Origin: Saccostrea echinata
Lineage: Eukaryota
Length of the DNA stretch: 64,000 bases
Direction: 5' to 3'
Assembly (NCBI RefSeq): GCF_033153115.1
Contig: NW_026889760.1
Span: 5,022,001-5,086,000 of the forward strand
The notes under the pieces were generated by a model. The model was not told the origin of the DNA, ran no database searches, and saw nothing but the letters and a program-made list of their open reading frames with translations. How positions within the stretch are numbered: the stretch's first letter is position 1; the number at the start of each line of letters is the position of its first letter. Shown here in pieces: positions 3,648 through 60,300 of this stretch. The position numbers and the translations under genes are program-made.

Positions 3648-4043
3648 TTTTAGGTCACCTGAGTTACTCAGGTGACCTATTGCTATCTCTTTCTGTCGTC
3701 GTGAGGCGTGCGTCGTTCGTCGGTCGTAAACTTTTGAACATTTTCATCTTCTTCTCTAGAACCAGTGAACCAATTTCAACTAATTTTGGCATCTAATTAT
3801 AGCATCTACGAGTGAAGGGGAACAAACATTGTGAAATTCATGGCTCATGTCCCCCTGGGGCCTGAGGGGTGGGGCCAAAACCATCAAAATCAATGCAATC
3901 TTTAAAAATCTTCTTCTTTTCTACTGGTCATTAAGCAGTCAAACTGTTGGCATGATTGTAATAAGCATTGAGCCCTTTACCAAAATTGTGAAAGTCAGGG
4001 GTTCTGGTGTTAGGGCTGGGCTATATAGATCATATAGTGAAAG

Positions 4044-4078
<35 letters not shown>

Positions 4079-8784: not shown

Positions 8785-8834
8785 GTCTGTCGTCGTTGTT
8801 GTCGTCGTCGTCCTTGTTAACTTTTCACAATTTC

Positions 8835-8866
<32 letters not shown>

Positions 8867-10260
8867 GACCAAACTTGCCACAAAGCATTGTTCAAATGAA
8901 GGGCCACGCCCTCTTTCAAGGTTTGATAATTACGAAATAGTGAAAATTGGTGGCATGTTTTAAAAATCTTCTTCTCAAGAATCACTGGGCCAGGAAAGAT
9001 GAAAATTATATGGAAACATCTTTAGGTAGTGTAGATTCAAGTTTGTAAAAATCATGACCGCTGGGGGTAGGGCCAATATGGATGATCAAATTTTTACATA
9101 AGAATACATTATTACTAGTAAAATCTTTAAAAATCTTTTTCTCCAGAACCACTGTGCTAGGAAAGATGAAAGTTACGTGGAAACATTCTCATGTAGTGTA
9201 GATTCTAATTTGTTCAAACCATGACCCCGGGGGTAGGGCGGGGCCACAATGGATGATAGATCAAAGTTTTACATAGGAATACATTAGGAAAAATCTTTAA
9301 AAAATCTTCTTCTTCTTCTCCAGAACCACTAGGTCAGGAAAGATATGAAACTTACGTGGAAACATCCTCAGGTATAGTGTAGATTCAAGTTTGTTCAAAT
9401 CATGACCCCGGGTGTAGTGTGGGGCCACAATGGACGATCAAAGTTTTACATAGGAATACATAGGGAAAATCTTTTAATTAAAATCTTCTTCTCCAGAACC
9501 ACTGGGCAAGGAAAGATGAAACTTATGTGGAAACATTCTCGTGTAGTGCAGATTCAAATTTGTTCAAACCATGACCAAAGGGGTTGGGACGGGGACACAA
9601 TGGATGATCAAAGTTTTACATAAGAATACATAGGAAATATCTTTAAAAATCTTCTTCTCCAGAATCACTGGACCAGGAAAGATGAAACTTATGTGGAAAT
9701 ATCCTCAGGCAGTGTAGATTCAAGTTTGTTCAAATCATGACCCCCGGGTGTAGGGTGGGACCATAATGGATGATCAAATTTTTATGTAGGAAAAGATAGG
9801 AGAAATCTTTTAAAATCTTCTTCTCGAGAACAGCAGAGCCTTGATTAAACAAAAATGTATTTTATTTTATATGGAAGCATCCTCAGGTAGTGCAGATTTA
9901 AGTTTGTTCAAATCATGACCCCCAGGGGTAGGGTGGGTTACAATGGATGATCAAAGGTTTACATAGATATACATAGAAAAAAATATTTAAAAATCTTCTT
10001 CTCAAGAACAGCAAAGCCATGATTAGTCATATTTATATGGAAGCATCCTCAGGTAGTGTAGATTCAAGTTTCTTCAAATCATGGCCCCCAGGAGTAGGGT
10101 GGGGCCAGATATACATTGGAAAAATCTTTAAAAATCTCAAGAACAGCAAAGATTATGTCCCCTGGGGGTAGAGCGTTGACCTAATAGAAGATAAAACTTG
10201 TGGGAAATTTTTTTTAAAAATCTGTCAAAGAAATATGGAAGCATCCTGAGTTAGTGTAGA
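8741..10260 (+). mobile_element. HINE carrying a ~166-bp Cg170-like satellite array, 3'-truncated
   Basis: ttttAGCTCACCTGAGCCGAAGGCTCAAGTGAGCT start, (GTC)n, about 8 diverged monomers containing GTAGTGTAGATTCAAGTTTGTTCAAATCATGACCCC; no 3' hairpin. Confidence 0.85.
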
Positions 10261-10465
10261 CCCAGTTAGCACAACATTATTAAAACGTTATACTGAAAAA
10301 CGTTGTGAAAATGTTATAAAAACATCTTTTAAAACGTTATTACAACGTTATTTTGTGTGGTTTTTTAGCTCACCTGAGCCGAATGCTCAAGTGAGCTTTT
10401 CTGATCACTTTTTGTCCGTCGTCCGTCTGTCCGTCCGTCCGTCTGTCCGTCTGTAAACTTTTCAC

Positions 10466-10499
<34 letters not shown>

Positions 10500-10523
10500 A
10501 TTCAACCAAACTTGCCACAAAGT

Positions 10524-10573
<50 letters not shown>

Positions 10574-12233
10574 CTTTCAAGGGGAGATAATTAGGAATTA
10601 GTGAAAAAATAATGGCATCATTTAAAAATCTTCTTCTCAAGAACCACTGGGCCAGGAAAGATGAAACTTATGTGGAAACATCCTCAGGTAGTGTAGATTC
10701 AAGTTTGTTCAAATCATGACCCCCGGGGGTAGGGAGGGGCCACAATGGGGGATCAAAGTTTTACATAGAAATATATAAGAAAATATCTTTAAAAATCTTC
10801 TTCTTAAGAACAGCAAAGCCATGATTGGTCATAATTATATGGAAGCATCCTCAGGTAGTGTAGATTCAAGTTTGTTCAAATCATGACCCCCGGGGGTAGG
10901 GTGGGGCCACAATGGGGGATCAAAGTTTTACATAGAAATATATAGGAAAATATCTTTAAAAATCTTCTTCTTAAGAACAGCAAAGCCATGATTGGTCATA
11001 TTTATATAGAAGCATCCTCAGGTAGTGTAGATTCAAGTTTGTTCAAATCATGACCCCTGGGGATAGGGTGGGGCCACAATGGGGGATCAAACTTTTACAT
11101 AGAAATATACAGGAAAAAATCTTTTTCTGAGGAACAGAAAAGCCTGCATTAGTAAATTTGATATGGAGGCATCCTTGGGTAGTGTAGAATGAAATTTGTT
11201 CAAATCATGACCCCCGGGGGTAGGGTGGGGCCACAATGGGGGATCAAAGTTTTACATAGAAATATATAGGAAAATATTTTAAAAAATCTTCTTCTTAAGA
11301 ACAACACAGCCGTGATCGGTCATATTTATATGGAAGCATCCTCAGGTAGTGCAGATTCAAGTTTGTTCGAATCATGACCCCCGGGGGTAGGGTGCGGCCA
11401 CAATGGGGGATCAAAGTTTTAAATAGAAATATATAGGAAAATGTCTTTAAAAATCTTCTTCTTAAGAACAGCAAAGCCATGATTGGTCATATTTATATGG
11501 AGGCATCCTCAGGTAGTTTAGATTCAAGTTTGTTTAAATCATGACCCACGGGGATAGGGTGGGGCCACAATGGGGGATCAAAGTTTTACATAGAAATACA
11601 TAGGAAAATATCTTTAAAAATCTTCTTCTTAAGAACAGCAAAGCCATAATTAGTCATATATATATGGAAGCATCCTCAGGTAGTGTAGATTCAAGTTTGT
11701 TTAAATCATGATCCCTGGGGATAGGGTGGGCCACAATGGGGGATCAAAGTTTTAAATAGAAATATATAGGAAAATGTCTTTAAAAATCTTCTTCTTAAGA
11801 ACAGCAAAGCCATGATTGGTCATATTTATATGGAAGCATCCTCTGGTAGTGTAGATTCAAATTTGTTCAAATCATGACCCACGGGGGTAGGGTGGGGCCA
11901 CGATGGGGGATCAAAGTTTTACATAGAAATATACAGGAAAAAATCTTTTCCTCAAGAACAGAAAAGCCATGATTAGTAAAATTGATATGGAGGCATCCTT
12001 GGGTACTGTGGAATGAAATTTGTTCAAATGAGGGACCCCGGGGGTAGGGTGGGGCCAATGGGGGATCAAATTTTTACAAATGAATATATGGGAAAAAATC
12101 TTCTGCTCAAGAACAGCAATGCCATTTGTTATATTGATATGAAAGCATCATCAGGTAGTTTAAAATTCAACCCCCCCCCCGTTAACTTTTCAATACTTAA
12201 CTGATTTTTGCTTTTTTTTTCCTAGCCAATGTG

Positions 12234-12385: not shown

Positions 12386-12666
12386 AATTTTACAACATAA
12401 TAAACAAATATAATGATTGCATTTCTTACAATTTTAATACCGGGAAATTCAAACGCCAACACTATATACCAACCAACCAACCAACGTTGGCTCGATATAG
12501 TCTTGCTTTTTCAGAGATGAATTAACCAGTTAGTTTGTTATGTAAAGCATAAATTTAATTTTAATTAAGCCAGTCTGTAGTAAAACCATATTAGATTATT
12601 ATGTAAAATATTGGCGTAGTCAACAAAGCTATACTGATGGAAAATTAAGCACACAATGACATATAT

Positions 12667-12699
12667 CAGGGACCTATATACTTAGTATATAGGTCCCTG
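12667..12699. mobile_element. 33-bp P-like terminal-repeat remnant (probable excision footprint)
   Basis: catatat|CAGGGACCTATATACT TAGTATATAGGTCCCTG|catatat. Confidence 0.8.
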
Positions 12700-13122
12700 C
12701 ATATATATAGGTGCAACTCGAACAAAAGTGGGGTTATGAGAATTATTTACGTACTGTACTTTTGATCACAGAAGATCTCTATGCACATGATGTAAATTAA
12801 GATTTTCCTGTCAAAGGTTACAACAATTGAAGTGGTTACGTTTACCAACATCCCTAGAAAAAATCGCTTATGTGTAAAGAGTATACATGATGAAACTCAT
12901 TTTCTGAAATGAAGAATTTAATACGATCACCGAAGAAAAAGAATTTAAATGTTTCATTAATTAAAACCAAATTTCCAAAAATTTCAGCTTTAGATAATGA
13001 AAAAAAAATTGGGGGTAACTCGGTTCTGAAGACAAGGACACCGTCTAAATATAAGCTTATCGTTCATAACTGTTTGTACCGCAAAATGCGGGAAATATTT
13101 CCGTGGTTTAGCAGGTGCGTGA

Positions 13123-13261: not shown

Positions 13262-13710
13262 GTAAGTGTTGAATAACTTGTTATTTAATGTTTGAGAATT
13301 CTACCTTTTTCTGCCCTTTGCTTTTATACAGACGTCTAACGTCTAATATGTTCGAATTTCCTCTAAACACATGACAAAGTTTGATAACAACTTATTTTCA
13401 TCTTGATTTAGATATTAAAAGGACGATAGATAATGAAAAAAAGATATTTGTTTTATTCTGTTGTTGATTTTAAGAGATTGGCAATATATATTACTCGCAT
13501 TTATAGAAAATCCAGCTGATAGGCATGCACGTACTTTCATTTTTAGTTTTTCTCTCATTTTTAAACAGCAATGTTGTGAATATTTAATTATTTTGGGTTT
13601 GACACATTTTTTGGTATAATGGTTTTTGTGGTCATGTAGATTTGTTTAAGAAGATTGATATGGGTAAGTTTACTGAAAATGTTGAGGCTAAAACATGTCA
13701 TGTGTTTTTT

Positions 13711-14195
13711 CAGAAACCTATATACTAACGGGATAAGCAACTCCTTAAGCGCCATGTTTATTTACCCAAAACGGCACATACAACACTGCAAGTTTTTCAA
13801 ACTAAGTTTTTTCCCAGTAAAAAGCTTGTTCTCTGATTAATGTAATCTGTTCTTTTTGTGTATCAGAATGGATATTTAATAAATTTAAAAGCACATATTA
13901 TAAAATAATTTAGCTATTAAGTAAGCAACCACCAAAATCGGCGATTTCTCAGAAATACGGCCGATCAGGGGCACGCACTGATCAATAAACGTAATTACTA
14001 CTAAGATACGGAATAAAAACAGTGCTAATAACAAATCTTGAATAATTTTTTTGATAGATAAATTAAGATTTTATTCTGAAATATTTGATAACAAAAGAGA
14101 TATATTTAATTAAAATTGACTTACGAAATCCCGCAACTTATGAAATATCGCGAGACTTGCGAGAGTTGCCTATCCCATTAGTATATAGGTCTCTG
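13711..14195. mobile_element. P-superfamily-like MITE with 7-bp target duplication
   Basis: gtttttt|CAGAAACCTATATACTAACGGGATAAGCAACTC ... GAGTTGCCTATCCCATTAGTATATAGGTCTCTG|gtttttt (33-bp TIR, 3 mismatches). Confidence 0.8.
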
Positions 14196-17100
14196 GTTTT
14201 TTTAGTAAATGCTGAAATGATTTCAGTTGAATAAAAAGAACATACAGTAGCTAACGTAATGAAGTATTAAATTTCTACATCTAGTTGCTATATTTTCACA
14301 GAGCATTTTATTTATCAGGGCTGTTAGAAACAAAAAAAGTTACTTAAAGACCAACAATGTTGGCTTGTTTTACAATCTTGCCTACCAATTAAAACTGTTT
14401 AAAAATGCTTGTCGATATCAAAATATCTTTTCATATTCTTAGAAATATGAATATTGTACACCTTTTTTTAATTAATGCATAGATAACTCTAGTATTGATA
14501 AAACAATCGAGGGGTTTTTTTGTTGGGGGGGGGGGTCTTGAAAAGGCTGTATAATTATGTACGTAAATGAACAACTGTTACAAAAAATTTCAATTTATCA
14601 TAGTGACATCATTAGAGTTTATGCAAAAGGTTAAATGATAACAAGTTTTCATCTTTTTCACTATATCTTCTTAAATTTGTAACTTCATTTATTTAGCAAT
14701 TTTTTTTAAATATTTAGAATAAGGCAGAAGATAAAATAATTATAATATTTCCTTCTTAAAGAAAAAGTTTTACAAAACGAGTTTTATCTCATTTATCTGT
14801 TTTAGAGTAAAATTGCCAAATTAAATGTTAAATTTCACGCATGGAACAAATTGAACAAAATTACTTGACTTTATCACCTGCCTTTTTATAAATAGAGAGT
14901 ATGATGTGAATTTAGAATATATTGTCTTTGGGTGTTAAATAGTTCATTTGGTACAATTGATTGTGATATAAACCTGAAGTGCTTATAGTATTTGACAGAC
15001 TGATAGATTTCCAGCTCCCCCATGCATGTAAAGAGTGCCTATGTAAAATTACCATTGCAGCACCTTTTGTGTTTGACACTGTTATATTTCTTTTACTGTT
15101 TCAACAAGTTGTTGACTATACACATCTACAGCCTTCTGCCTATGAATAATTGATATCCTTCTTAATTAAAGTCCAGCTCAGCTTCAGCATCTGATAAATT
15201 TCCAACTTTTATTGTCGACCTATCTAAATTTCTCAACCACTTTTAAAAAAAACAACTGAAAACATAAAATTATGTTCCATTTGAAAAGCTTCTCCAGACA
15301 TTAAAGCATAAATATGATCCAGATTAGGTATAGTGTGGGCTGTATAAAATGCCAGTGTTGTATAATACCAGTGCTGTAAGCCATTGTCAATGAATTATTA
15401 AGTAGTGTAGTGTAACTTCATGGCTACCTTTCCCCAATGTTGCTCAGTTTGGAAAATCAATGAATTTTATTGCCGTTTAATTTCCATGGTTATGATATTT
15501 GTTTAAGTCTCAAGGACCATATGATTGACCTAACTATTTTATTGCTCCATATAAAGCCAGAGTTGCATGTACATATTTCCTTAAACAGATTCTGTATTCA
15601 GGACTTTTTCTCCAGTTGTATCTGAAGTTTTAAATGGATCATGTTGCATTGTACCCATCAGTTTTTGTTGTGATAATACATGATAGATTTGGGGATAGTG
15701 TGATGTAAATGAGTACAATTAGGAATCTTATGAGTGACTATTTCACTACTTCACAGTACTAATAATACACTGGTGAGTATTAGTAAAATGCATATGTATG
15801 ATTAATATGCATTATCCAAGGCTTAAAAGCTGTGCTTCTGTTTTGGAATTTTTAAAATTTTAGTTTTACCGATTACTTCTTGTATAGGATTTGTCTTGAT
15901 CCATTTTATATAATTATACATACTAGTAATTGAATCAGATGTGATACTGTATCTGATAATGAATAAATTGATTGTTGATTAATGTTAAAGAGAGGGAATT
16001 TAATCAGTATCCTTAATTGAAATTTCATTAGAACAGTAATCCCATTTGTAAAATGCAGATGAAGATGATTAATGAACTTTTTTTTTTCTATCGTAGTATC
16101 ACAGGTATTTTATGTTTTAACTTGTTTGACTCGATCTTTACTACAGAGTCTGTCAATGAAGGTTGCTACTGGTTGATTGTTTATGTAGCGTAAAGTTTAA
16201 AATCTTTGTTTACTGGATATGTTCTGATATACGTATAAAATGTCGATCTTATCTGAGGGGGGCTTTAAGGTAGATACCATTGGGGAGAGGAATGGAATCA
16301 TGGAGCTTTAGGTGATTTTGGGTTGGTATTTTAAATTGCATAAAACTTTGGCCTAAGTGTTTTATACTGTGTTAAATGTATAGCAATTGTTTTATGCTAA
16401 GTTTTCATACAAAAATGTAATTAAAATTTAATTGAGATTAAAATTCTTGACTATTCATTTTAAAATTTATGTAGCATTTTTTATTAATACTGTAGCATTT
16501 TTATTAATTACATTCAAAGTTAAAAAAAAATATTTCAAAGGAATTACTACAGTGAAAACATTATGAGCATGTTCTTGGTACCGGGTACATAAATTACTTG
16601 GATACATGTAAAGTTTTACATACATGTAATGGCAGTTCACATTTTCATCACCATGCGTTATACCTTTATAGTTAATCAATACATGTTTAAAGGAATATTA
16701 AGGTTGTTGGTACTCCTTCACTGTTTTACAACCTCCCAGAGAAATCATATAAAACACCTTGATTGAGGAATGTTGAGTAGCTGTTTTCATGGAGTACCAA
16801 ATTTGTGTATGTCAAGCTTGTATTGAAGCTTGGAAGTGACAAAATCCTATGTTTAATGTTGTTGTCTTGATCGAAATGCAACATTACAGTTTGCATCTCT
16901 GCTCAAATTGCTCAATTCTCATTCTTGGAGAAATCACCAGGTAAAGATCAGACCAGAAGCATTATATTATGCACAAGCACACAGGTAGCCATTGTTTAGA
17001 ATATACCTGCACTGAAACTTACCTGGGTAATATAATTTAAACCTAAACAAGGACAGGATTTTCTGTTAATAATCTCCCTGCTTGTTTGACTAGATATCAG

Positions 17101-23400: not shown

Positions 23401-26400
23401 TCTTCAATGACTTTATGTTAACTCGCATATTAAGTATTTTAAATATATGATAAATAGAATACTACACACTGAAATCCATATCATATGTCATATCAGCCCT
23501 CAGGCCCCATATCAGCCCTCGGGCTGATATGGGGCCACTCGGGCTGATATGACACATGATATGGATCTTAGTATGTAATATTCTCTATATATTAAACTTA
23601 TTAAAGGTATCACTGTACACAGAAATTTCCTTCTAGTTTAATCAACTACATGTATTTATGATTTAAGACATGTAAATCTTTTAATCATGATTATCTTTTT
23701 TCAGTAATGTTGTAAGAACAATCACAGGACACTTCTCAAAAAAATTTCCGTAAGTCTGATTTACATTGTATATATATATATAACGACTTTATTATTAACT
23801 TTTTAGTAGAGGTAATAATTGTACATGGTGCATTTTGAATAGGAGAAATTATGCATCAAAAAAATTTACAAGAAAACATTTTTCTTTTTATCAGGCGTCC
23901 AGGAATATACTTTTTTCAGACAGAGAGTTCCGAGCTTCATAAACAACATTTCTGTGTTGTGAGAGTCCGGCAAAGCATCAGGTATTAAAGAGAGTTATCT
24001 ATTGAGAAAGAATTAACATTAAGGAATGTTTCCTAAGTGGATCTTCATGATAGTTAATAACAATTTCAATTTAATATTCCTTTTGTGTGCCTAGTTACCT
24101 AAATGTATGGCAGTACGTGCCATATGCCATTTCTTGGAAGTACAGGATGATATTGAAAAGTGCTCTTCTTAAATATAGTCTAGTTTTAAAGGTTTGCCTA
24201 TTAAAAAGTACGGGAAATATTAACATTAAGTTCCCTAACTTTTGCTTAAGACTTGACGATGTTGAATTGCTTTACTGTAAATACATTTGATGACCGTAGG
24301 GAGTACAAAGTGGAGATATCAGACCGTGCCTACCACCCCCCTGTGTTACTGATAGAGACAGGGGACAGAGTCTGGTGGTACTGGGACAAATTCAAGGTAG
24401 AGATTTGAACTCTCAAAGTTTTTAAAACTCTGAGCAAATTTATTAAAAATTATAAAAAAAGAAGTTTTAGATAAATAAATAAAAGCAGTACCGGTAGCTT
24501 TTGTTTTATTTTGTATTAATTTAAGAGGACATGAATAGACAGAGGTCAGATTTTTAAAAAAATAATTGCTTTTAAAAAAGAGGCCATCATTATTCTAGAT
24601 TATACAATTTTAGGTAATAACCCTGACATTTTTTTTGTGTGTTCACAGTGCAAGAAACACCATTGTGTATATCAGATAGAGGCCCCGACCTTGAACCAGG
24701 ATGATGAGGAACCATATCAACCGGTTCAGAATGGCTTCAGGTGGAGTCAACCAAGGTAGGGGAGATAATCAATTCTCCTGTTAGTTTATTTATTTAAACA
24801 TAACCACTGGTTTTCATTGAATTGTTATGTTATATGATGGTAAACTGGGTGCTATCTGGACTTCTATATAGTTTACTGTTAAATATTGCCACTTCCTAAA
24901 TAATTAGACCTATTGCAACTGATTCACTTAGCCTATTTTATGTTAAGTTACAGTTTATGTGATATAGCTTTGTTAAATTTGTGCCATATAAAATTTACTA
25001 ACTATTGAAGGTGACAACGAAAAAAAAATATTTGAAAGGGGGGTCCACAATATGTCACAAGAGAAAAGACTTATCAATAAGTTGATAAATGAAGTGGTTT
25101 GATTTTTGCTCACAAACAGGAGGCATGTATTAAGTGATTGACATAATCTGTTTTACAGTAAGCAGGGTCTGCTGTCTCATGTGTTCACAGAACCTGGAGT
25201 GTTCTATTACTCGGACCAAAACTTCCAGGAGGCAGCTGAGTACATTGGTACTGTGATAGTCAAACCTAAACCAAAGGAACACAGGGTAATGATCAAGGAG
25301 GACGGTTTTGAACCAGGTAACCTCATAGCACAGGACAATACAAATGAAAAGTTATGATTGGTGTAATAAATTTCAGTATCATACTAATCATTTTTTATTT
25401 TTTGCCTTTTAATCTGAACAGATGTAGTACGAATCAGAACAGGAGAGAGAATCTGGTTCTGGTGGAACCCCATTCTGTTTTCAAAGAAAAATATTCCAGT
25501 TTTACTGAGGGAGGTAGAAAAATGTCTGAACCCAGCAACGAAGCGACCTTCCACACCAGAGGATGAATGTAAGTCAGGAAGGTGGTCTTAAACACAGTCT
25601 TAAAATTCCATAAACTGCAAAGTTTCAAAACTGCAATCTCTAAAGCATAATGTACATGTAGATCAATGTATTGCTATATTTGCATTCATTGTGGAGGATA
25701 AATTTACAGTTCAGAACTACAAATAAGTTTTGTTGTAAAACTAACTTTAGTGAATAATAAATCTTATGGAGAAAGGAAAAAATTTAAAGATTGTGGAATT
25801 GCAATAATTAGAAATAAAGAGAACTTTGTTTTTTTATCTGCAGCTAAATACCAGCACCCAGATGAGGAGACTGTAAAACTGATCACAGATGTGGGATTTG
25901 CAACAGTTTTTTATTCCACAACTGGAGTGTACCATTACAGGGTACGGAACTCGACTGTGTGTTCTGTGATAGTCAGCCCAGGAGAAAAGGTCAGTGATGT
26001 TGTAGTTATTTCCCTTGTATATGGACAATGTATAAATTGCAGTTTGCATTATTTGGGTTTTAAAATAGCTTTCATTTGTTTGAAAAAGAAAATTCAAAAT
26101 ATAATATTATCTGGCAAAAGGGAACTTACAGAAATATTACAAGCAAAAAAATTTTGCTTGTTTGGATATAAGTCCTTGAAAATCTTTTTTCATATTTAAA
26201 CATGAAAATTTTTTTCTTGTTTCTGTTTTTCTCAGAATCACACAATCCACCTGACAGACAGCGGTCCAGAACAGAAGGTCATCATGTCGGTCCGACCCAA
26301 TGACCGGGTCTGGTGGGTGTGGCAGAGCACCAAGAAGCAGCATAATGTCATACAGGTGTCCCATCAAGGTGATCCCATCCCTGGGGGATTCTGCAGCGGT

Positions 26401-29400
26401 ATGCCTCGGGACTCACCCTCAGCTTTCGTACACACCTTCGAATTTCCAGGAGTATTTTACTATAAAAGGTAAAATTAGGTTGATTTGTGTGCTAGGTTGT
26501 AGGTAATTGATTTTTCAAGATTTACTAGTTTTTTTTGTTTTGTTTTTTTAAATCAATTTTGAATTTTACCATCTGAGTAAGTTACAACATATGAAATATG
26601 CAAACTTGTAACATAAGAAAATTTTACTTTCTAGTCAAAGTTTACCAAAGATATTTGGAGCAGTGGTTGTGACCACACAGCCAGTGGTTCACGAGGTGGA
26701 AGTAGGACCCATCATACGTCCTGACCCCATCTCTGTCAAAGTTCACGACATTGTGTGCTGGATCTTTAGCAAACCACAAAAAGAGAATGTAGTCGAAATC
26801 ACCCATCCTGACCAAGTTACAGAAGATCTACAGTGTGAAGAAGTCAGTGCAAGGTCAGTTTTTATTGTCTGTCTGTCTAGCTGTACATCTGTCTGCTTTG
26901 TATGTCTGTCTGTCTGTATGTCTTTCTCTAAGGCTGTCAGTTTGTCTAGCTGTAAATCTGCTCATGGTCTTACCACTGTCTAACTTTGTAATGGCTTCAC
27001 ATATCACTTAGTGCCATGTAGAGAACTGTCAAAGCATTGCTCATTAAGTTTTTACTGTTTTAATTTTATGATTGATTTATTTTTAGGTCTTGTTTGAGCA
27101 AGGCTATAGACAAAACAGGAGTGATGCATTTCTACAGCAAGTCCTTCAACAAACAAAAGAAAAATGTCGAAAATGTAAGCTTTACAATAGATCTTGCAAA
27201 TTCCACATGAATTGTAATTTGTTTTAATCACAAATATTTTTTTCTTTGACACATGTTTTAATTCACTGAAATATAAAATGTTTACATTTCCAATGTCTTT
27301 GTGTGAGATAAAATTTCAAATAGTAAAAAAAACTTTATTTCTACATAAATCTACTGGTTCATTGATAGGCGTGTTGAAAAAAAATCACGAGCGGGGCGGG
27401 ACGAATAGAGACAGAAGCGGGGGCTTGTAGCATGTGAATTTGCAGAATTAAGAGCATGTACATATAAGGAATAACTGTCAGATTTTGGGGTTTCATGACG
27501 ATGATCAGTCGATTGGCTTGCGTGATAATTTTATGCATAAACGCCTTCGGCGTTTATGCAAATTATCACGCAAGCCACTCGATTGATCACATCATGAAAC
27601 CAAAAAATTAGACAGTTATTCCTTAAGTGCATCCACAAGTGTATATGATGACCACTGTTTCTTGACTTTAAAATTTCTTAGCATATGCATCTATAGTGAA
27701 ATTAAAACTCCATTATTTTTTCACCTATTGAGCTAATTTTTCACAAAATTTATCTACAGTACCAAATTGAAAATACTGTATAAGGCATTATAACAGTATA
27801 ATTATTCTTGATTTGTGAGATGATTTGTTTCTTCAGTACCTGGAGGATGTGAGATTTAGCAGTGTGATCAGTGATGAGCGCTATGACAACACAGTCATCA
27901 AAGTCGACCAGCAGGGATTTCATCCACATTTTGTATATGTACAGAAGGTATGGACAGACTCTATAATTATAGTATTTAAAACTGGTTTAAGACTGTCTTT
28001 TTGATCAAAGTATATATACAGTAAAAATTGCTTATTAGGAATTTCTTGAGATATAAATTTTTAGTTCCTTGTAACCAAAGTACTTAATATCCATATACAG
28101 TAAAACTTGATTATAGCCAAGTTCTAGGAACCTGTGAATTTACTTTGAACACTATTTCCATATTTGGTTATATCCATATAACGAATTAGTTAAAGTATAT
28201 ACATGTATAAAAAATTCGCAATATGCATTTTTTCCTTCAAATGTGACTACCAAATATGTACTGGGTGGTATTAAATACAAAATTTTCCCTAAAGTTTCTA
28301 AAGATTTCTGATGAATTGAATTTCAGATATTAATACTAATGATAAATAATGCCACATAAATATTTGAGTTTTAAGATACCGAAAATTCATTATAAAAGAT
28401 GTAATTTCGTTATTTTTAACCTCTACGGGACACAAAAACAGTTCGCTATATCCAGAAATTTGCTATATCAGAGTTACTTATAATCGTTATATTTTCCTAG
28501 GATTTGTTTAGAATTTTGCGTGGGATAAAAAAAAATTCACTATATCCGTGAATTTGCTATATCCATGTTCATACTAAATGAGTTTCACTGTAAGAACATA
28601 TTATGATATGAGAGATGGGGAATTCTTCTTATCATAACTGAGAATTACTAATATCAGAGTTCCTTATAAGCGAGTTTTACTGTATAGAAACTGACATTTT
28701 ATCAGTTAGTAACTGACTTCAGATTGTCCTTCGAAGTGTTTTAGTCTTTTTAAAGGGAGGTAACTTTTAACAGGCAACAATTTCAGAAGTACAATGAGAA
28801 ATGTTTAAGAATACTTGTAAACTTTGATTCGGTTTTTAATTATTAGGGAGAAAGTGTCAGATGGACCTGGATCAACACGGATGAGGAACACAATATCATC
28901 CATGTCACCTCTCCAGATAGCAAGGTACTAAACACTGGTATTACAAAAGATGTAAAAAAAATTGTAGTGATTCATTATTTAATTTAATGGAATTCTATTC
29001 ATGAAAGATGTAGTTAGAATAGATTTACTTAATTGTTTTGCATTATCCTTTAATCAAGGACCGTTTTGGAAGAATGAACCCTCAAGTGAGTCCTGTCTGT
29101 GATAATTATTCATGGTCATACTATCATTTATCCTATTATCCACCACTCTTCCAAAGGAAAACCAGTATCTAGCATTAAAATTTATGTAGTATTAACTTTC
29201 ATAAAAATATGTTACCCTACATTGGCCAAGTTTAAGGGAAAATTTCGTATTAGATTAATTCACTGTTTCTTACTGTTATATAATTGTTTAATCTGGTAAT
29301 ATGTATGGTTGCTGGAATTTGAAATAGTCTTGACTGAATCATTTAATACTGAGTCAAATTTTAGCCTTTGCATTTGCTACATGCATATTTTTCTCTGATG

Positions 29401-44400: not shown

Positions 44401-47400
44401 ACTATCAAAGTATCCAGTATGGGTAAATCAGGGTTGATTGTGGAGTGGTACATTGACAATCGTATTGACTCAGAGTATGAAGTCCAGCAGTATATCGTCA
44501 ACATTGTGGGCCGAGACTTCAGTGTCAAGGATGTCAACAGTCATATCAGGTACTGAACACACTAACACTAAATTTCAGGTAGAACTGTGAATTTTTAAAA
44601 AATTATATACATGTATATAAGGATTTTAAGTATATGTGATATTTTCATTTTTAGTTTTGAATGTAACCTTGTGGATAACAAAGGTCACAGTGTTAGAGGT
44701 ACCCAGCATTGCTGGACTCTGGATGGAAACAAACGTAAAATCAACATCAGGGGTCTGTACCCTGACAACACGTACAGGTGGGTGCTAAAGATTGGGCTAT
44801 ATATATACAGTACATATGTTACCTCAAGACAACTATCTACATGTATGTTATCTGCAGTTTTATTTTTAAATACATATATTTTTCAGTATTGAAACATGAA
44901 AGACGTATATATTGACATATTTATTCAGGGTGTTTGTGGTGGCAAATTATGGTTTCCGTGACGATGAGGAGGAACAAAAGCCTATAGAGGTCCAGGCTAC
45001 ATCTCCTGTGATTTACTACACCACAATAGGACCCCCTCTCCCTCCATTTGTCAGGGTTCTCAATGTTGGATTATATCAGGTACAGGTTACACTCAGTGAT
45101 TTTATAGATATTTAGTCATAAAATGTGTTCTTTGTATATCTTGTGTGAGAAAATCATGTGAAGATGTGTATATTAAAATAAAATATTTTTTTATTTATCC
45201 ATCATGCAGAATTAAATTCATATAATGATACAGTATGTTTTCTTTATTATGAGAAAAAACTCAATTAGAATTCATGGAGAGTTTATCATTGTGCAGGAAT
45301 AAGAAATCAAGAAAATCAAATGATGCTATAAATTTGGCAATAACTACTGGGTTATTATAAAGTGAAACTTTTTTTCTGTATAGACCACAGTTCAATGGGA
45401 TCCTCCAAGACTACAGAGTGGGCTGGAGTTATTGGGTTATAAAATCTATGTAGATAACAAGGTTCTACAAGGTCTTCAGAGAAAAGACACACGACAATTG
45501 GTGATTAATGACCTGGTGCCAGGTAAGAGTTATCTCCCTTAAAAAGCAATCTTGTATATTACCTCTGGTTAAAACTGTCATTTTGATCTGGTTTTTGAAG
45601 TATCTATCCTAGTTTTTCTTTTCAAGTACTTGTAGCATATTTCATGCTTTTTTTCCAGGAGTCTATTATTTTCTAAGCAAATTGAATATTTATTAATTTG
45701 AGTAATTAAGTCCAATAAAATTTTCACTTAACAGTAGGTATCTGTATAAAGAGTCTTCTATTCCCTTTTCAACCAAGTGTTTACTACATAGTTTACCTTT
45801 GACAAATTTCATACAAAAACTGTATATTGTGCTTTCAATTTCTCATTTCCTCATGTAGGAAAAACAATCGGTGTATCGGTGGTAGCAGTCCTGAGACAAA
45901 GTGGTATAGAGAGTGAACCCTCCCGACAGATACACATCACCTGTCCTAAGAGGCCTCCTCCCCCTCATATCAGCCAGCAGCCCCTCCACAAACACGGCAG
46001 TGTATTAGTGGCCTGGGACAAGCCAGGAGGGGTCAGGAGAGCCGTGGCTCAGGAGGGAATCACCAGCTACAGGTACCCCAAACTTTCCTTGCGTATACCA
46101 GACCTGTTTACTCATTTCGCGGTATTTTGCACGGATTTTAAGTCCAAATTATAATTCACATTTTGCTCTAATTATGAAAATATGGAAATCAGAAATCCAT
46201 TCATTTGGTTTTTAGCAGTTAGATTTCGTTATGATCTGTCTCAGTTTGACGCTTTTTAATCGCTTAAAAAAGAGGTAGATTTCAAACACTTAAATGATGT
46301 CAGGTTGCCAAAACGCGGTGGTTTAAAAAATGACAGAAACCCCTCAAAAGAAAGGAAGGTATGATGTTTTTCTTAAACTATGTTTTGGTAATCAGAAATG
46401 TAGTTGTTCTCTAGTAATATATGTCAAATCGATGGAAAGTAAAATATTATGGAAAAATGCCAAATCTCACTGACAAATCTAATAAAAAATACTGAGAGAC
46501 AACAGTATAGGTAAACAGGTCTGGTATGCTTGTTTGTTTCTCATCTTCAATCTAAATGTATTTCATTTCAGTGCAGACATGGAATTTGTTAAAACATTAA
46601 ATTTTTTTTACAGATATTATTTGTATCCTGTGTTAACTCATTAACTAAGATTTTATACCAGTAGTTACACTTGCATATGGTAGGTTTGCATGTTATGATA
46701 TGAGATATCATAAGAAGATTCATAGAAGAGGAACAGAGTTTGGAAAGTTAGCTATTCAGTTGTGGAGTTTTAAGTATCTGTTTTTATTTTGTAGGATATA
46801 TGTCAATGATAAATACTTTGGGAAGATAGATGCCTCCCCCAAAATGGATCGCCAAGGTTACCAGTATGTGATCACTGGCCTTAACCCTGAGGAAAGCTAT
46901 GATGTCAAGGTCAAGGTATGGTGTATACTAGTTGTGTTGTCAAATTATGATTTTGAGTCCTTAAATTTTTTGTATGTGATTCTGTGTAAATTGTACAAAA
47001 TAACCCTTTTAAGAGCAATTGTTGACATTATGCTAGGGAATCGTTATATAAGTGTTTACAAAAGAATTACTTCAGAAATGAAACAGAATATTTCCTTGGT
47101 AACAAGGATTAAAAGCTGGGCGAAATGTATGGACAATTTGAAAATAAGATTTTAGTGGCCTTACAAGTTTTTAGAGAAAATTATTCAGGGATAAGGCTGT
47201 TGAGCACCTATGCACATAAGAACTTTTTTTTTCTCAATTCTTATTTCTACTTTTCACAGAGTATGGCTGGTCAGAAACATGTCGATCCCGACCAGAACCA
47301 CATTTTCTGTATCAGTGAGAGTGCTTTCTCTAACACTATCCCTGTCCAAGCTCCAGCGGCTCCTAAATCTCCAGAGCTCAGGCTAGAGAGCATGACCCCC

Positions 47401-50400: not shown

Positions 50401-53400
50401 TAATGGAGGTCATAGTAGTGTTACAAGAAGCTGATTGAAATGTTAAAAATGAGGAAACCTAACTTAAATTGGTTCTTAACGAAGAATCTGTCTTTAATGA
50501 TACATGTATTTACATCACAACTAGGTCTTATTCTAAACTGAAATTTATTCAAGCTTGTTTTGTAATTGTCAATAGATCATAAATCATCTTTAAATGACAC
50601 AAATATTGAAATTATTTGAAATCTACACAGTCCATAGAATGAAGAGATAATACATTTTAAAAGCCTGTTTATTGATTTGACATAACTGAAAACAGCTTCA
50701 AAACTGTTTGAAGCAAAAGTTGCATAATGTCTGGTTAAAGGATGATTTTAAATGTGATAAAGTATGGGCCATTTTTCCATCAGTCCATCCCATATATCAA
50801 TAAGAAAAGAGACATTTATGCACGCTTAAGCCTAGCAGCTCATAATTATATTCACATATTGAAGGCTATTAGGACAAGAATTTTATTTGGAATTTTAAAA
50901 TAGCTCTGCGGCCTTGCGGGTATACAAGATTTAGGTATGATGACATCAAAATTGTTGCAGTTTATTCCAATATTCCTAAAAGCTACATATTGAAAGGGTT
51001 GGTTTAACGGAGCCACTAGGGTCAGATAAAAATTAGAAGATCATAATGTCCCATACAATCGGTAATTTAACCATGGTTTAGGATCTGATAGAAGATGTGT
51101 ACCCAAGTTAAGAACAATGGCTAGCACGAGGGTCCTCTCATCGCAGTGCGAAAGATATGCCCTTTAAAAATCATGGTCTGCTAGACTCTTGAGTAAATGG
51201 TAGATCATCAAGAGATTCAAGTTGACTATAAAATGCTTATGCAGTTTATCAGATCATCAATCTTATCTTGTACATCAGGAGGCTTTTTGTATGGTCGTCC
51301 GTCATTTGTAAAAATTATTGGAGATGCATGCTTAGTAATACGCTATATCCCTACTGTTTGTATTTAAATATTGAGTACGTAACATTTAGAACTATAGAAC
51401 ACTAATTAAAAGAGATTGTATTGAAGAAGTTAAACCATGGCAAGATAAGATAGAGTTTTTTCAGACCATGTAGAAAAGTGTTTCAAAATTATAAAGTCAA
51501 ATGGAACTTGAATAATATTGGTGCACTTTTAATTAATATGTTATTAAATCAAGAGACACTTTTCTTCAAAGTTTGCTTGTTTGTTTTTGTTTGTTTTTGT
51601 TTATTTGTGTCTCTTATATATTATTGTTTATGCCCATCTCATAATATTTTCCAACCTTTTTATTTATTTATTTTTTGTAACTAAATATGTTTTATTAAAT
51701 TTTAAATGTTTGACATTTCCACCATAAATAAACATTTATACAAAATCAATGAAATTCCATTGTATCCCGTGGTTGCTATATCATCATGAGTCTTGGACAA
51801 GCATTCTCAGATCAATTAATTCTTTACATGCGGCACCAAAACTTATTCATTCCACATTATTATGGTCAATAATTTTAAACTACACATATTTTCGTCCGTT
51901 TTAAACATCCAAGATACCCATAAAAGCTTTTTTCAGTGGAGTTTTGTTGCCTTTGTTTTAAATTAAAGGGTGTGAGCTATACATGATCCCCTGTACTCTT
52001 TGTATATCTCTGTGTTTAGTAGTGGGAGTTAAGAAGGAATTACAAAGTTTGTTGTTGCTTCTCTTTACGAGCCTTTTTCCGTATCGTTACTATGAGAAGA
52101 GGAAGATCAATGGGATATAAGTGTACTTCTAACCAATTGATCGGAATAATTGAACATTGATTTTTTTTTCCCTTTTTTTATTTTATTCATTGGATAAGAA
52201 AGTCCTATGTGTGATCAGTATTGCAGAATGACATTTAAATGGTGCATGTTTACACGTCTTTTAAAATGACTTAAATATTCATTGGCTCTCAAAGTGTGAG
52301 AATCTTTCATTCTGTGTTGAGGAATATTTCTTTTATCTTTTAACAGTAAGTTTACTTTGTCTTTTCTATTAAAGTTCAAGTGTTTATAATGTTATCATTT
52401 TGAAGAATGTATCTCATTTCTTTTTAAAAATTAATTAAATGATATTCTGTTTTTGATTTAAATTCCTTTTGTCTATTTAAGGAAATAAAAAACACTGCTT
52501 TGCCTCTGTCAACAATGGTTTTTGTAGGATAACAATTTCACATTGTACCCTAAAAAATGTCATATTTTTATATAAATGTTGTAAAAAAGTATTTTTGATT
52601 ATATCTAAAAGGAGTTTACATTCACTAATTGTTGTCCAAAAACAAAAAGATACAATTGAAGCCAAAAAGCTCTTAGGTACATTTTTTATGAATTTTAAAA
52701 TATTTGTCTCCATGCAAATTTTGAATGACATATGTTTAATTCAATCTGCAAAAGGGATATTCTTCAAGTTTTTTAGGCACCAATGTAAATGAAATTATAA
52801 TCAATATGTTAAAAAAAAAACTTTATTTCACTTATACATCCCTACTTGTATACACAGCACTTTAAAAATTGTTTGAATAAATATTTTTTATGTAAATTCC
52901 ATAAAAGCACTGAAGAGCTGGGCCCGGGTTATCATTGCCACCATGATCTGAATTAGGAATCTAATATCCTTTCCAAACATGGAAAGTGTCAGATTTGTGA
53001 AATCAAACATTTACACCCGGCCCATACAAAAAAAAGGTACATATAGGCATGCCTTTTTTGTGCTTATTCAGTACCTAAAGTGTGCCTACTAATATAGGTA
53101 CAGAAAAGGCATACCTATTCTGTGCCAATAATGAACTTAATTTTTTTCCAATGTACCTAAAATGTACCTACTTTGGACTTTGTCATTTTTCAGTGTGCCT
53201 GAAATGTACCTACATTGAACTTTGTCATTTTTCAGTGTGCCTGAAATGTACCTATATTGGACTTAAATATTTTCCACTGTACCTAAAATATACCTACATT
53301 GGACTTAGTCATTTTCTAGTGTGCCTGAAATGTACCTACATTGGACTTTGTCATTTTTCAATGTGCCTGATTAGTACCTATAAAAGACTTAGTCATTTCA

Positions 53401-53798
53401 CAGTATTTTCGTCTACTTACCCATACCAAAAATATTAACATTTCCATATATCTTTTCTTTAAATTTTGTACCTTGAGGATGAGTAAACTTTTAGAATATA
53501 CAACTTTTTGTACCTAAAATTGACAGTCATGTTTGAATTTAACTAAAACTTAATTCAAGACTTTGTCATTTTTCAATGTTACTTCTAAACTAAATTGGAC
53601 TGTCACATTTATTGCTTCTTTGTAACTTAAAACTGATTTTTTCAACATGGGCACCTATTTGTGATAATATTTAAATAGAATCATGTTTTTCAATCAGAGA
53701 AAAATGAAAACTCAAACAAGTTCAATAATTAATAACAATTGAAATTATAGTTTTATAGTAATACAATTATATCATGACATTTAGGATGTGTGATTTGT

Positions 53799-53829
<31 letters not shown>

Positions 53830-54296
53830 GGAGTAATAAAAGCCACTTTTTATCCACCATTTCTTTTTCTTTTTTTTTATAATTATTATTCAACTATTTT
53901 TGTTCATTTGATTATTAATTATATTATACTTAAGATTTCAGTTCATTAATGCAAGCATAATGTCTACTGTGTTGGGGGAAGAAAAAAAAGGGGGGGGGGG
54001 GTATCTTGTTAATCAAATGCCAAAAATATATATATAATTATCAATTCAATTCAATTAAATTTTTTATGGCAAATAAAAGATCCATTTTTGATCTTTAAAA
54101 CCCCCCTCTACCCTACAGGGTTCTTAGTAATTTTGTTTTACAGGTTATGAGACAAAGGAGGGTGGGTGTCTTATAAACACAGTATAATTATAAATACCAA
54201 TATTTTGACCATCTGAATTGCCCAGTTTAACAGAAAAAAGTGTATTAAAATCATTAATACCTTGTGTTACAGTCTATTAAATGATATCCAAATTAG

Positions 54297-54342
<46 letters not shown>

Positions 54343-57300
54343 GAAATACAGAAATGTTAGGGATGTTTAAATTTACTTATATAGAGAGTGAGAATTTATT
54401 TATATCCAGTATTCCAGTGATATTTTAAAATAGACTTCGTTTTTCTTTGTATGCAAAACGATGTTGATTTCCAGTGTTCTTCAGTGACACAGGTGTTTGT
54501 ACTAGGTGACCTTTATAGCTTGCAGAAATTTTGGCTCGTGTATCACGTGCAGTTCTTCAATCACGAAGGGCTGATTTGAAGTCTACAGCTCAATCATAAT
54601 AGGTAAATAAACAAAAGAAAAAATAATAAAAATGAAATAAAAACAAGATATTTATGAAATTTGTTTTAAACTATAACTGATAGTAAAGTAGTAGCAGTAA
54701 AGAATAGTGTCACATTTACAATTGATCAGGCTTGAAATTTAATATAAATAATAGCCTTCAAGGTGTTCAAAAGACCTGTCCTTATTGTTTAATTTACCAT
54801 ACACATAGTATGTAAACATGATGTGTATAATTTACAGGGTTCATGTAGTGACACTTCATTTCGATGTTTGGGAATGTACGTAGAGTGCCAGTTACATTAA
54901 GATTTTAGCTGAGGTCTAGTACATAAAGAATTTGTTGTAAATCAATAAATTTAATCAATTTCACATGTAATTTAAAAAAAAAAAGAAGTTATGTGAAATC
55001 AGAATGGCGACCCCGATTATAACACAAAATGGCGTCCAAAATGGCGGTCCCGATTAATTACCCAATTAGGGACGCTATATTTCAAGGAATTCATACTAAT
55101 CGGCTTTTTAATAAAGTTGACGCCATGTAACAGTTGTTAAATATGCATTGTTATAATTTTTTATTGTTTACACGAACTATTTCATGAATAATTTAACAAA
55201 CGTTTTTAAAATCACGTGACTCCTGCGAAGTCTACGATTGGTCAGCGACAGCGCGGATATTTCAGAGACGATTTGAAAATTTGCTGTGATGAAAATTTCA
55301 AGAAGAAATCAGATACTTATTAGTCGGTGAGTCTTTATTTCAGTTTAAATTTTGATGCTGCTTGTTGTAAATGCATTTATCCACTTAGAGAATGCATTAG
55401 AATATGAATATCAAGTGTAGATTTCGCGATATTCTTGGTATTTGTATCGTAGATTTCTGGTTTGTTTTGATTCAAGATGGCAGTGCTACACATGAAGTAA
55501 ATGTACTTAAACATAATCTCTTTGTTTAACATTATGTATCACAAGACTTTTGTAAAAAAAAAAAATGTGTTTTAGAGTCTTTTCTTAAAATATAAAGATT
55601 TGAAATGTGTCAATATCTGGGAACAGTTACTTAGAGTAGCCTCTGCATGAGCATGACGATAATAACAAATGAAATCCAAATGAACTGTGTGAGATAAAAT
55701 TATTGTAATAGGGTCTTTGAAATACAAGATAAAGATCTTTGTTTTAAAAAGGGGGGGGGGTCAAATTTTTTTAATGAATCAAGCAAAATTTACAACCTTT
55801 ATCCAGCATAATAAAACATAATAAATTTTATATTTATATAAGTTGTGCATAAATTTCTGATCATCTAATCCCCAAGCTCTCCACTTCCATACCTGGGGGG
55901 GGGGGGGGGGGGGGGGGTGTTAATATGAGACACATTATCATTTAATTCAGAGTGTAATGTTTCAATAATTCAAACATAGTGTGTGCATGTGTGTTGGTCA
56001 TTATTAATGCCAGATAATTTCATGAACAAACATATTCTTTTTTTTCAACAGAATACTTGTCTCCTGTGGTCATTTAAATTCCAAGCTGGAGGGAAATGCA
56101 TTAAAACTATAACTTTATCAGTAAGTATAAGATCTAATCTGATTTTTGTAAAAAATGAGTAAATGTATAAGAATATAACAAGGCACTGCTCATCAAACTC
56201 CAATGCAAACTATAGGGATTTCATCTACTAAATATGTTTAAAAATATTTCAGCATAAAATGTAACTAAGTAAGTGAAGACAGGGACCTATATACTAGGTC
56301 CCTGGTGAAGAGCAACATAATAATAATTGAACTTTTTCAGAATTGAAAGAAAATGACATGAAACTGAAAGCCGAAATTGCGTAGCATATTCAAATGGAGG
56401 ATCAGTGTTTTTAAAGAGTCCAGATGGAAACCGCAACTGTAAAGCAATGAAGACTAACAAGGTGTGCTGGTAGAAAATTCTGTGATGGATAGGAACTCTA
56501 TAAAGATAATGAAGATTACATGAACTACAATTGAACAATTCATGGGGAAAAAAAAATTGACATGAAATGGAGTATACTTTTGACTTTGTGTATTTAAATT
56601 AACTTATGTATATGCCTAAAAAGGTATGTCTATTTATTTCTTTCATTTTTTCTTATTAAGAAAGTTTAAAATATCATTATCTTGATGTCATTAACCATAT
56701 TAATCTAAATTAATTAAATGTTAGGGATTTGATTAATTAAATATTTGGGATTTCTTAGGTATAGATTGTATTTATAGAGATGACTTTTTTAAAGAAGTGT
56801 TTTTCATATATTTTCATGTACTATCATGCAATAAATTTTTATTTTTTCCATAATTATTATTGTTTAAATCAATTTTTCTTTTACATAGGCCTGCCTCAAA
56901 CGTGCCTATTTGATAGGTACATTATAGGCATACCTTAAGTATACTTTTGGCACAGACTCTTGAGTACCAAATTGGTAGGCATACTTTAGGTAGACTTGTA
57001 GGTACATTTTAGGTATACCTAAAAGGTACTCATCTGAATGTTTGAGGTGTGTACCAATATTGTGCTTTTTTGGTACCTAAACTGTAGGTATACTTTAGGT
57101 ATACTTTTGGCACATTCTTGAATGTTTGAGATGTGTGCCAATATTGTGCTTTTTTGGTACCTAAACTGTAGGCATACTTTAGGTATACTTTTGGCACATT
57201 CTTGATGGTACCTTTTAGGTATATTTATAGGCACATTTTAGGTATGCCTAGAAGGTACCTATCTGATCGTGTGCCAATATTGTGCATTTTTGATACCTAA

Positions 57301-60300
57301 AGTGTGCCTATTAATAAATATAGGTATACTTTAGGTATGCCTATTTTGTATCAATTTGCTACCTATACTTGAACAAGTGGTTCCAAACTTGCATACCTTA
57401 GGCATGCTTTTTTTGTACCTATTTTTACCCAAGATAGGCATGCCTAATCTGTACTTTTTTTTGGTATGGGCGATATCGACATTTCTTTTTAGTGCAGGTA
57501 TCACTTTCACGACACTATTAACTTGAAGAATGCGTGAAAGACAATATATAACAAGCATTATTTGCTTTTCGGAGCTGTCGAGCACATTTTAAACTTGTAC
57601 AAGTTTACTTTAAGGGCAATATGATGGACAAAACAAACACAATATAATTCCATGTTTATGCAGTAGCCTGAAATTTGGTGTGCTAGTTACTATGGACAGA
57701 AATGTATTTGTCCAGGTAATATTGAACCCACTGCACTGTTTAATTAAAGAACAATGCTAGCGAAGCCCTGAAATTGAGAGTTTGAAATAATGTTACAGTA
57801 TTTAATTGTCAGTTTTACATCGTCACCAATGATTTTTTTATAAAACATAAGATGATTTAAAAGCATAACTGAATACAACTAATTTTCTTAAATTCTCAAA
57901 TATTCCTCAATGCACCCTTTATTAATTCATTCATTTCAATAAACAGTACATACCATATTTGCTGTAGACCTATAGGGTCTAGGGAAAAAATAAGATGTTA
58001 TAACAGATTTATCATTAACTGTCTTGATCATTGTTCTTGAAATGTGGTCCTTGGGAGTCATCTCCCTTGATATATTATATTTGTTAACATGAAGCCTTTA
58101 ATTTTTTCATATTGATAAACATTGATTTTTATTGCAGTAGTTTTAGAAAATGGCTAAATTCAACAAAGGTTAACCTTAATAATTACAGGGTGTAAAGAAA
58201 TTCAATTAAAATCAGAACCCTATAGCCTTGAATGTCAAAGACAAATTGAAATTTTACAAAGTCTAAAGCATATATGCCATAGTATTTGACAATTTTTGAC
58301 ACATATATTTGTATGACTTCTGCCAGAAAGGGAATAAAAAAGAAGACAATTAATTCTTGCAAGTTGTATATTTTCCATAGACTCTGGCTGGTATACAAGG
58401 CATGCTCTGTTCAGATAAATATACCATGCTATATGCATACATTGAACATGTTTGGTCAATTAACTGAGTTTAAACAGACAATTATATAATTGTAGCATTA
58501 TTTGTTTCTTCAGAAAATATGTCGTGGCTTTTTTGGCCCCTCTCTATAATGACTTCATTGCAAAATCTCTCAAGACTGTCAACTATAAAGCAAAAGAAAA
58601 ATATTGGGTTTGAATATTTAACCAGCACAAATACAGCGTAATAGTGTCAGATTTTTACATGTACCAGTATTGCCACTTGTATGTAAAGTTGCTAACCATT
58701 TGGTAAGTGCTTTCCTTTTTTGACTGTATAATTGCAATTTGGATTCCATATTGTTTTGCTGAGGCAGTAAATTTCCCTTTGATCCATTTCCCCATTAAGT
58801 TAACACTAAATGGTACATGGCATTATTGTGGACAGATTAATTGTGTATTTGAATTTTTTTCTGATAATCCATTTCCTCTTGGTGGCATGTTAATTTACAT
58901 GTTTAGAATTTTCTGTGTATACCCAACGGTTGTTGTGAATTGTTTTATCTTAAGCCAGTTTGCATTTATTATTAGTCCCTGACTATTTTTAGTCACCAGT
59001 TAACTTTTATTTGAACAAAATAATATGAAGGATGCATCGAAATCAGAAAAATTGATTAGTGTTTTGTTGAAAAGGTATTGAGTGTTCTTTTTTTTCTTTT
59101 ATAAAGATTATATTTTGATTAATAAATGGAGTTTTTTCAAGTATGGAAACCTTAGCAATCAACTGCTTTTGGGCTAAAATTGTTATTCATATCATTAAAA
59201 TTTTCACAGTTGATGGCATCAAAGCACATAATATTTCAGTTAATTTTACTGTCAGTGGATTCATTTTCTTGTTCATTATTCTCACACTGAAGAATATATA
59301 GAATGCATAATTTCAAATTTGAAAAAAATGAACATGAGGATGAAAAACTTTGTCATAGCTGGTAGAATATGCAGATGTATGTGATTAATCAAAACTTTTA
59401 ATTATGTAATGAATTACTGGGAGAAATGAATTCATCAACAACATTTTAACAAAATGGCAGTTGTGTGAGAGATACAGAAGAAATACTGTTTGTCTCTGTT
59501 ACTTTTATTTCCAGATTCAAAAAAAAATGATTTTAAATTGCATTTACATTTTAGAGTTTCTTACTTTTGATTTTTTTTATAGATGATATTTTTGAACTTA
59601 ACCAATATCTCCATGAGCAAGATAAGCTGAAATTACCTATCCCAGGTGAACCTGATGATCGAATGCTTTGTGTTTTAGTTTTATATTCACTAATATGGAA
59701 GCTTGTTTTGAATGAGCTTTAATTGTTTTCATCATTGTAAACTTATACTTCTTTTAAGGATCAGCTTACATTGTTAATTCAATATGAACAGTTATGAAAT
59801 ATGCTTTATTTTTTATTCATGCTTGTCAATAACTTGCAATTTGCTGCCAAAGGTTGCCAACGGAACTTTGTCATTGGTGAAAATAGTTTTTCTGCATTTT
59901 ATTTGCCATTTTATTCTCTGACCATACATTGACAATTTCAATCATATTTCATCATTGTGTGTGTGTCAAGAATACTTGGATTTTGCCCTAACTTACAAGC
60001 TGCTTGAAGATCTTTTTATCTATCATTTATATTCAGAGAGCACTTGAAGATTTGGTACTGTTTAAGATAAGCGGTTACAGTACTATGATTAATACTTTAT
60101 GTATTTGATGTGTTCTGGGTGTGAGGTTAATGTTTATGAATTTTTGTATATGATGTCCGTGTATTGAAACAAAATGTAATTTGTATTTGCTTAATATAAA
60201 TAACCTTTAATTATTGAAATTGATGGATTGAACTTTAGTTACTTTGTTCAGGACAAGTTGAGGCTTTTTTCATAGTTAATTATAATGTTTTTGATTACCT

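Follow-up and report, generated by a model that had tools for sequence, protein, structure and literature searches.

The 39 bases at positions 56273–56311 of the window, the 64,000-nucleotide stretch of Saccostrea echinata DNA analysed here, are very probably an end-joining scar left by the excision of a P-type cut-and-paste element from a GTGAAGA target, now carried as a passenger in a multi-copy host. A single scar of this kind is ordinary, and the interest lies in its family. From that family, we consider it probable that P-type transposases do not all cut with a stagger of 17 nt: in this animal, a clade that is THAP-less and has two genes and a 7-bp target would cut 19 nt inside both ends, and approximately 700 recognisable scars, outnumbering intact elements several-fold, would form a natural germline record of end joining with polymerase-theta-like inserts, spread by other transposons.

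Read exactly from the window sequence, the 39 bases form a palindrome in which a 25-bp core, CAGGGACCTATATACTAGGTCCCTG (56280–56304), is enclosed by two plus-strand copies of GTGAAGA (56273–56279 and 56305–56311), a 7-bp target-site duplication of the length that is the norm in the family. The core consists of the two termini of a resident transposon family, fused to each other. Its left part (56280–56296, plus strand) is a 17-nt remnant that matches positions 1–17 of the terminal inverted repeat of the family's MITEs and of an 8,424-bp parent element (L046), and its right part is a 10-nt remnant of the opposite repeat on the minus strand (56295–56304). The TA at 56295–56296 is common to both remnants, corresponding to positions 16–17 of one tail and 9–10 of the other, so that the description in the original prediction, a 17-nt and a 10-nt end overlapping at TA, agrees with the parent terminal repeat. 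Two tails can be joined without insertion in 58 different ways, 9 of which overlap by at least 2 nt; the 25-mer at 56280 is one of these nine. A pattern made of 10 nt from each end matched the window twice (12667 and 56280), compared with no match in 100 shuffles.

The source family was traced with a 22-nt end pattern, which gave 129 matches in the genome. Twenty-four of these places were examined; 21 held paired whole elements, mostly 488-bp MITEs, and three held one end only by this pattern. The 7-bp duplication was exact in 17 of the 21 whole elements. The parent element L046 shares its ends and 7-bp duplication with the MITEs and has a 35-bp terminal repeat. A minus-strand frame in this element matched PF21787, PF21788, and PF21789 above the Pfam cut-off (E values of 4.5e-24, 3.1e-19, and 1.8e-06, respectively), which are the P-type transposase domains comprising the RNase H core and the GTP-binding insertion, and its best solved match was the Drosophila P transposase 6P5A (E value of 1.3e-15). 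The first D, the D-x2-H motif, and the E align with the fly P transposase, while the second D was read from the frame outside the alignment. The gene is split over two frames and a 97% copy on contig C7 carries stops; with both close copies broken, no intact transposase source was found for the parent family. The THAP domain (PF05485) had no match in the 12 frames scanned, including a 904-aa frame of a sister family, although a small spliced exon could be missed by such a scan. Terminal inverted repeats and a 7-bp target duplication, both features of the P superfamily, are present; because the catalytic core, ends, and duplication come with no detected THAP domain, the element was filed as P-type and not as a full member of the superfamily. 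A second, apparently spliced gene (L046:646-2224, plus strand) faces the transposase and has homologues in L107, L109, and L110. This second gene of the long P-type elements shows 34–56% identity between families and has no Pfam match.

When up to 25 bases were allowed between the two 10-nt ends, the pattern was found at 534 sites in the 923-Mb genome and at none in a reversed control. This result supports both the interpretation of the stretch as an excision scar and the expectation that such scars would be abundant genome-wide; the 534 sites include passengers and duplicated contigs (record groups of 11, 24, and 36), and independent events are thus fewer. A sample of 50 sites was taken from contig C1 and part of C2, and 48 of them had distinct flanks under a strict test, one further pair merging under a later grouping. 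The 48 sites hold 38 distinct cores of 22–44 bp. Of the 48, 33 carry an exact 7-bp duplication and 40 have one with no more than a single mismatch; an exact 8-bp duplication occurred in none. The junction variants, collected and tested for microhomology-guided joins as had been suggested, fell into 14 overlapping joins, 5 flush joins, and 29 joins with extra or changed bases, a variety that bears out the view that this scar and the one at 12667 were repaired independently. Eleven cores occur at two or more independent sites; eight of them are insertion-free joins and three contain 1–3 extra bases. Each longer insert was seen once. The cores that stand unaltered at unrelated sites include the 25-mer (2 sites), a 32-mer (7), a 36-mer (8), and a 37-mer (8). 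The targets of scars and of whole elements share a bias toward T at position 2 and A at position 6 (0.80 and 0.64; 48 scars and 14 elements). Empty homologous sites were recovered for 4 of 100 scar records when these were compared with 588 kb of genome sequence (78–94% identity). No site was seen as a whole element in one copy and as a scar in another, which is the main gap.

Scars are also found inside other multi-copy repeats. A young element (L232-L270; e.g., L233:580 and 1651) bears two family scars approximately 0.5–1.1 kb apart and has 40 scored copies at 92–100% identity among 153 candidates. A second host with a 35-bp scar was considered as a set of separate events, and this was rejected, its 39 copies being variants of one event. 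Scars and MITEs of the parent and sister families often lie 0.4–2 kb apart (L007:1501 and 1889, L128/L016, and L181), a proximity that would fit local hopping.

The host of the 56273 scar is a 4,450-bp element (53021–57470) with CCC...GGG ends and subterminal tandem repeats close to both ends; no long coding frame was found in it. CCC ends are present in every complete copy, and the target duplication is exactly 2 bp in four of the seven complete copies. This host may resemble the animal CACTA/EnSpm elements, whose features are C-M-C ends, a 2–3-bp duplication, and subterminal repeats. The scar had been placed inside a larger foldback element; it does lie inside the 4,450-bp repeat, but the term foldback fits the shape only, given the CCC ends and mostly 2-bp duplications.

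A DNA search recovered 13 host copies that span the scar site. The core is present in 12 of them (three exact, seven with one common first-base change, and two with other changes), whereas in the remaining copy CTG alone separates the duplications. A flank-pattern search for the GTGAAGA site gave 12 matches. Neither an empty nor a whole-element state of this site was found in the 13 spanning copies or by the flank-pattern search, and the alignment of host copies did not yield the empty single GTGAAGA site that was to be looked for. Repair at the 56273 locus itself is not borne out, since 12 of the 13 host copies share the scar, which was copied there inside the host. The original prediction had held that an identical 25-bp core at an unrelated site, or the lack of both an empty and a full-length state, would count against it. 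One such unrelated site exists, and neither state appeared in the 13 host copies; the reading nevertheless stands, because simple joins recur and the host copies all trace back to one that had the scar already. The unrelated target with the identical core is in turn part of a different host, which has at least 28 copies. As for the CTG variant, it groups with a core-bearing copy (support of 0.92 in a 900-bp alignment whose outgroup placement is unreliable); independent repair is thereby disfavoured, and later loss of the hairpin is more likely. In L119, a relative with 61–74% identity, the alignment at the GTGAAGA site was too poor for any call.

A near-identical copy of the region on contig C84 is without the host, which indicates that the host arrived in the window recently and brought the scar along. 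The target at the empty C84 site is CG, and two extra bases are present at the left host junction. The C84 copy is also without approximately 430 bp near window positions 46098–46524. The region is repeated between C84 and the window at 88–99.7% identity (L200 and L220-L222), and the C84 region may be a second haplotype, in which case the genome counts include duplicates.

Two other members of the family are found in the window, and both are unchanged in the C84 copy. The second scar (12660–12706) consists of a 33-bp core (12667–12699) with the same ends as the 56280 core, between two copies of CATATAT. It is independent of the 56273 scar and lies in a high-copy repeat, in which six other aligned copies, at lower identity, lack it. 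A diverged whole MITE of 485 bp (13711–14195), 91–94% identical to five other copies, is flanked by GTTTTTT at 13704–13710 and 14196–14202; it also surfaced in an inverted-repeat scan, with ends related to the scar ends. Elsewhere in the window, positions 7712–7846 correspond (92%) to a sister-family scar site (C4:3785727) in its empty form, positions 3994–4832 and 8815–12170 contain arrays of a 166–168-bp satellite, with an inverted match between 3060–3170 and 10473–10583, and two small hairpin elements, nested or long, with arms of 30–60 nt are located at 27465–27625 and 23440–23600.

The retained ends have a sharp upper limit. In an unbiased sample of 96 ends, 17 nt were kept in 29, 18 nt in 16, 19 nt in 9, and an apparent 20 nt in 5, with none longer; genome-wide, 19 nt were kept in 141 strand-matches of the parent family. 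The terminal repeat is 33–35 bp long and thus offers 14–16 more bases past position 19. A 21-nt pattern, with a gap of as many as 90 bases allowed, gave three matches only, two of which follow the true repeat: one of the three departs from the repeat at base 19, one adds GG and then filler, and one keeps 39 nt. Since ends are kept up to 19 nt, the 17 nt at 56280 are what is left of a trimmed end, which was joined through a TA inside it; the 17-nt left end described originally is present, but 17 nt is not the family limit. Flank grouping of a sample deliberately enriched for long ends gave 101 groups, in which 69 ends reach 19 nt (67 if L154 is merged with the group it had in the 48-site comparison). 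At position 20, these 69 ends are followed by T 43 times, by A 12 times, and by G 14 times; in nine of the 14 cases the G opens the mirrored end, and three more look like mutated 19+19 joins. In the parent family alone, 19 and 20 nt are not separable, because base 20 (G) also opens the mirrored 19-nt end. Some of the 19-nt ends could also be 17 nt plus a duplicated ACTA, and many of them are followed by TA, which such a duplication would give too. Separately, two MITEs (L225 and L226) have one end trimmed to about 13–15 nt.

The same limit was found in a sister family whose transposase is 59–62% identical to that of the parent family. Its 8,346-bp element (L109) has a homologous repeat and a 7-bp duplication. 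The sister end pattern matched 167 genome sites, a number that includes further subfamilies, against one in the control. Thirty-seven sister matches reach 19 nt, and their next base is T in 31, A in 3, G in 2, and C in 1; the repeat itself has G and then A, and a GA continuation past 19 nt was found in none of the 37. Among 56 sister ends from 28 sites (7 drawn automatically and the others picked for canonical ends), 12 were at 19 nt, none at 18 nt, and 3 at 17 nt. The sister transposase frame (L108:4327-7041, minus strand) encodes 904 aa without stops; only one terminal repeat of this element was found in 17.5 kb. Other subfamilies of scars (C9:4308383 and C9:32082584 among them) begin with the same 10 bases as the sister repeat and then differ. 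Two additional P-like elements (L125:2700-9758 and L126:767-8308) have inverted repeats of more than 170 bp and 7- or 8-bp duplications, and a single short scar belonging to the latter shows an 8-bp duplication. The P-like family with the 8-bp target gave three scar matches, two of which are one duplicated site, too few for a retention limit.

In Drosophila P, the longest retained end, 17 nt, equals the length of the tail (PMC2895639 Table 1 and the available part of PMC7776569), and by the same logic the tail here would be 19 nt. By this analogy, the transposase likely makes a staggered cut approximately 19 nt inside the ends and not 17 nt as in the fly. The scars would thus lend indirect support to a long stagger, although not to one of 17 nt, as they stop at 19.

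An alternative that accepts the excision scar is that the cut lies at the Drosophila position of 17 nt, or at 20 nt, with bases 18–19 arising by templated re-priming on the tail. We regard this as unlikely. A 17-nt cut would fit the commonest kept length in the parent family (29 of 96 ends), an ACTA duplication yields AC at positions 18–19, and fly junctions in the available part of PMC2895639 carry an added A or AC past the full tail. However, 12 of the 56 sampled sister ends are at 19 nt, none at 18, and 3 at 17, their bases 18–19 (CA) do not copy the preceding bases, and 19+19, 19+18, and 19+1+19 joins recur at unrelated parent-family sites. A 20-nt cut is compatible with the parent family alone, but the missing GA continuation in the sister family speaks against it.

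A very unlikely explanation is that the cores are internal deletions of MITEs in which transposase tails played no part, arising when the repeats folded back and replication slipped across them or when gap repair was aborted. The ends do have an AT-rich, self-complementary sequence, hairpin deletion does occur, as the host copy with GTGAAGA-CTG-GTGAAGA apparently lost its hairpin later, and one product of this type was found: the 39-nt match (L223:272-325; C56:15996571) fuses 39 nt from one end with 15 nt from the opposite end and has an intact 7-bp duplication around it, which is what aborted gap repair would give. In contrast, retention stops at 19 nt in two families of unlike sequence even though the repeat runs on for 14–16 bases, and many 19-nt ends are joined without overlap or with filler; the limit at 19 nt has already largely refuted this explanation. 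It is highly improbable that the 25-bp core moves on its own as a mini-element: identical cores do recur at unrelated sites and the whole-element state was seen at no scar site, but 48 sites hold 38 distinct cores, a mobile unit would lack the bias of the recurrent cores (8 of 11 insertion-free, 3 of 11 with 1–3 extra bases, and longer inserts once each), the high-copy cores trace to host amplification, and the 25-mer has none of the internal transposase sites on which P ends depend (PMC7776569, Fig. 4 legend).

For the favoured reading as an excision scar, the following course of events is proposed. A family element would have inserted at GTGAAGA and duplicated the 7 bp; the duplication is observed, whereas the inserted state at this site was not seen. 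The transposase would then have made a long staggered cut at both ends, so that each donor end kept a single-stranded terminal-repeat tail of approximately 19 nt, a length suggested by the retention limit; the tails would be 3'-ended, a polarity borrowed from the Drosophila P element. Pairing of the tails at TA (positions 16–17 of one and 9–10 of the other), a pathway suggested by the observed overlap, would have been followed by flap trimming, gap filling, and ligation to give the 25-bp core. The scarred host subsequently multiplied, as the scar in 12 of its 13 copies shows, and one copy landed in the window, the C84 copy of the region being without it.

A stagger of 17 nt is characteristic of P transposition and, in the literature compared, is reported for the fly enzyme only. 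With scars, the stagger of P relatives that are still uncharacterised can be read directly from genome sequence; in the present case the scars point to a definite value, 19, for a transposase that has been identified, the stop-free sister frame of 904 aa included. It is also misleading to count tiny palindromes as mini-elements or as separate events, some having been amplified inside other transposons. In the open-access literature searched, no report of a 19-nt P-type stagger or of a natural genome-wide set of P-type scars was found.

The scars closely resemble the Drosophila P junctions of PMC2895639, at least those in its Table 1: both target copies surround two truncated terminal repeats, the classes match (short overlaps, blunt joins, and small and templated-looking inserts), and some joins recur, single junctions having been recovered 14 and 5 times after P(wa) excision. 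A transposase with an RNase H core and a GTP-binding insertion is likewise shared with Drosophila P. As far as the accessible sources describe the fly element, the terminal repeat is 33–35 bp here and 31 bp there, the duplication is 7 bp instead of 8 bp, the retention limit is 19 nt instead of 17 nt, and the scars are hundreds of natural ones, fixed or segregating, and not laboratory isolates; moreover, no THAP domain was found here, and the long element carries a second convergent gene. Galileo, another member of the P superfamily, has a 7-bp duplication (occasionally 8 bp), a palindromic target with T at position 2 and A at position 6 (GTATTAC), and DDE and D(2)H motifs, all as here, whereas the long foldback-like repeats and the THAP domain are found in Galileo only (available text of PMC4168063, where neither a cleavage stagger nor scars are mentioned). 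Zebrafish THAP9 and Pdre2 provide a P-type transposase outside flies that excises elements, and differ, in the part of PMC10983969 available, in 13-bp repeats, an 8-bp duplication, and the larger flanking deletions from the excision assay, with no stagger length given there. Overall, the parent family is filed as a P-type variant with a Galileo-like 7-bp target, an apparent 19-nt stagger, and no detected THAP domain.
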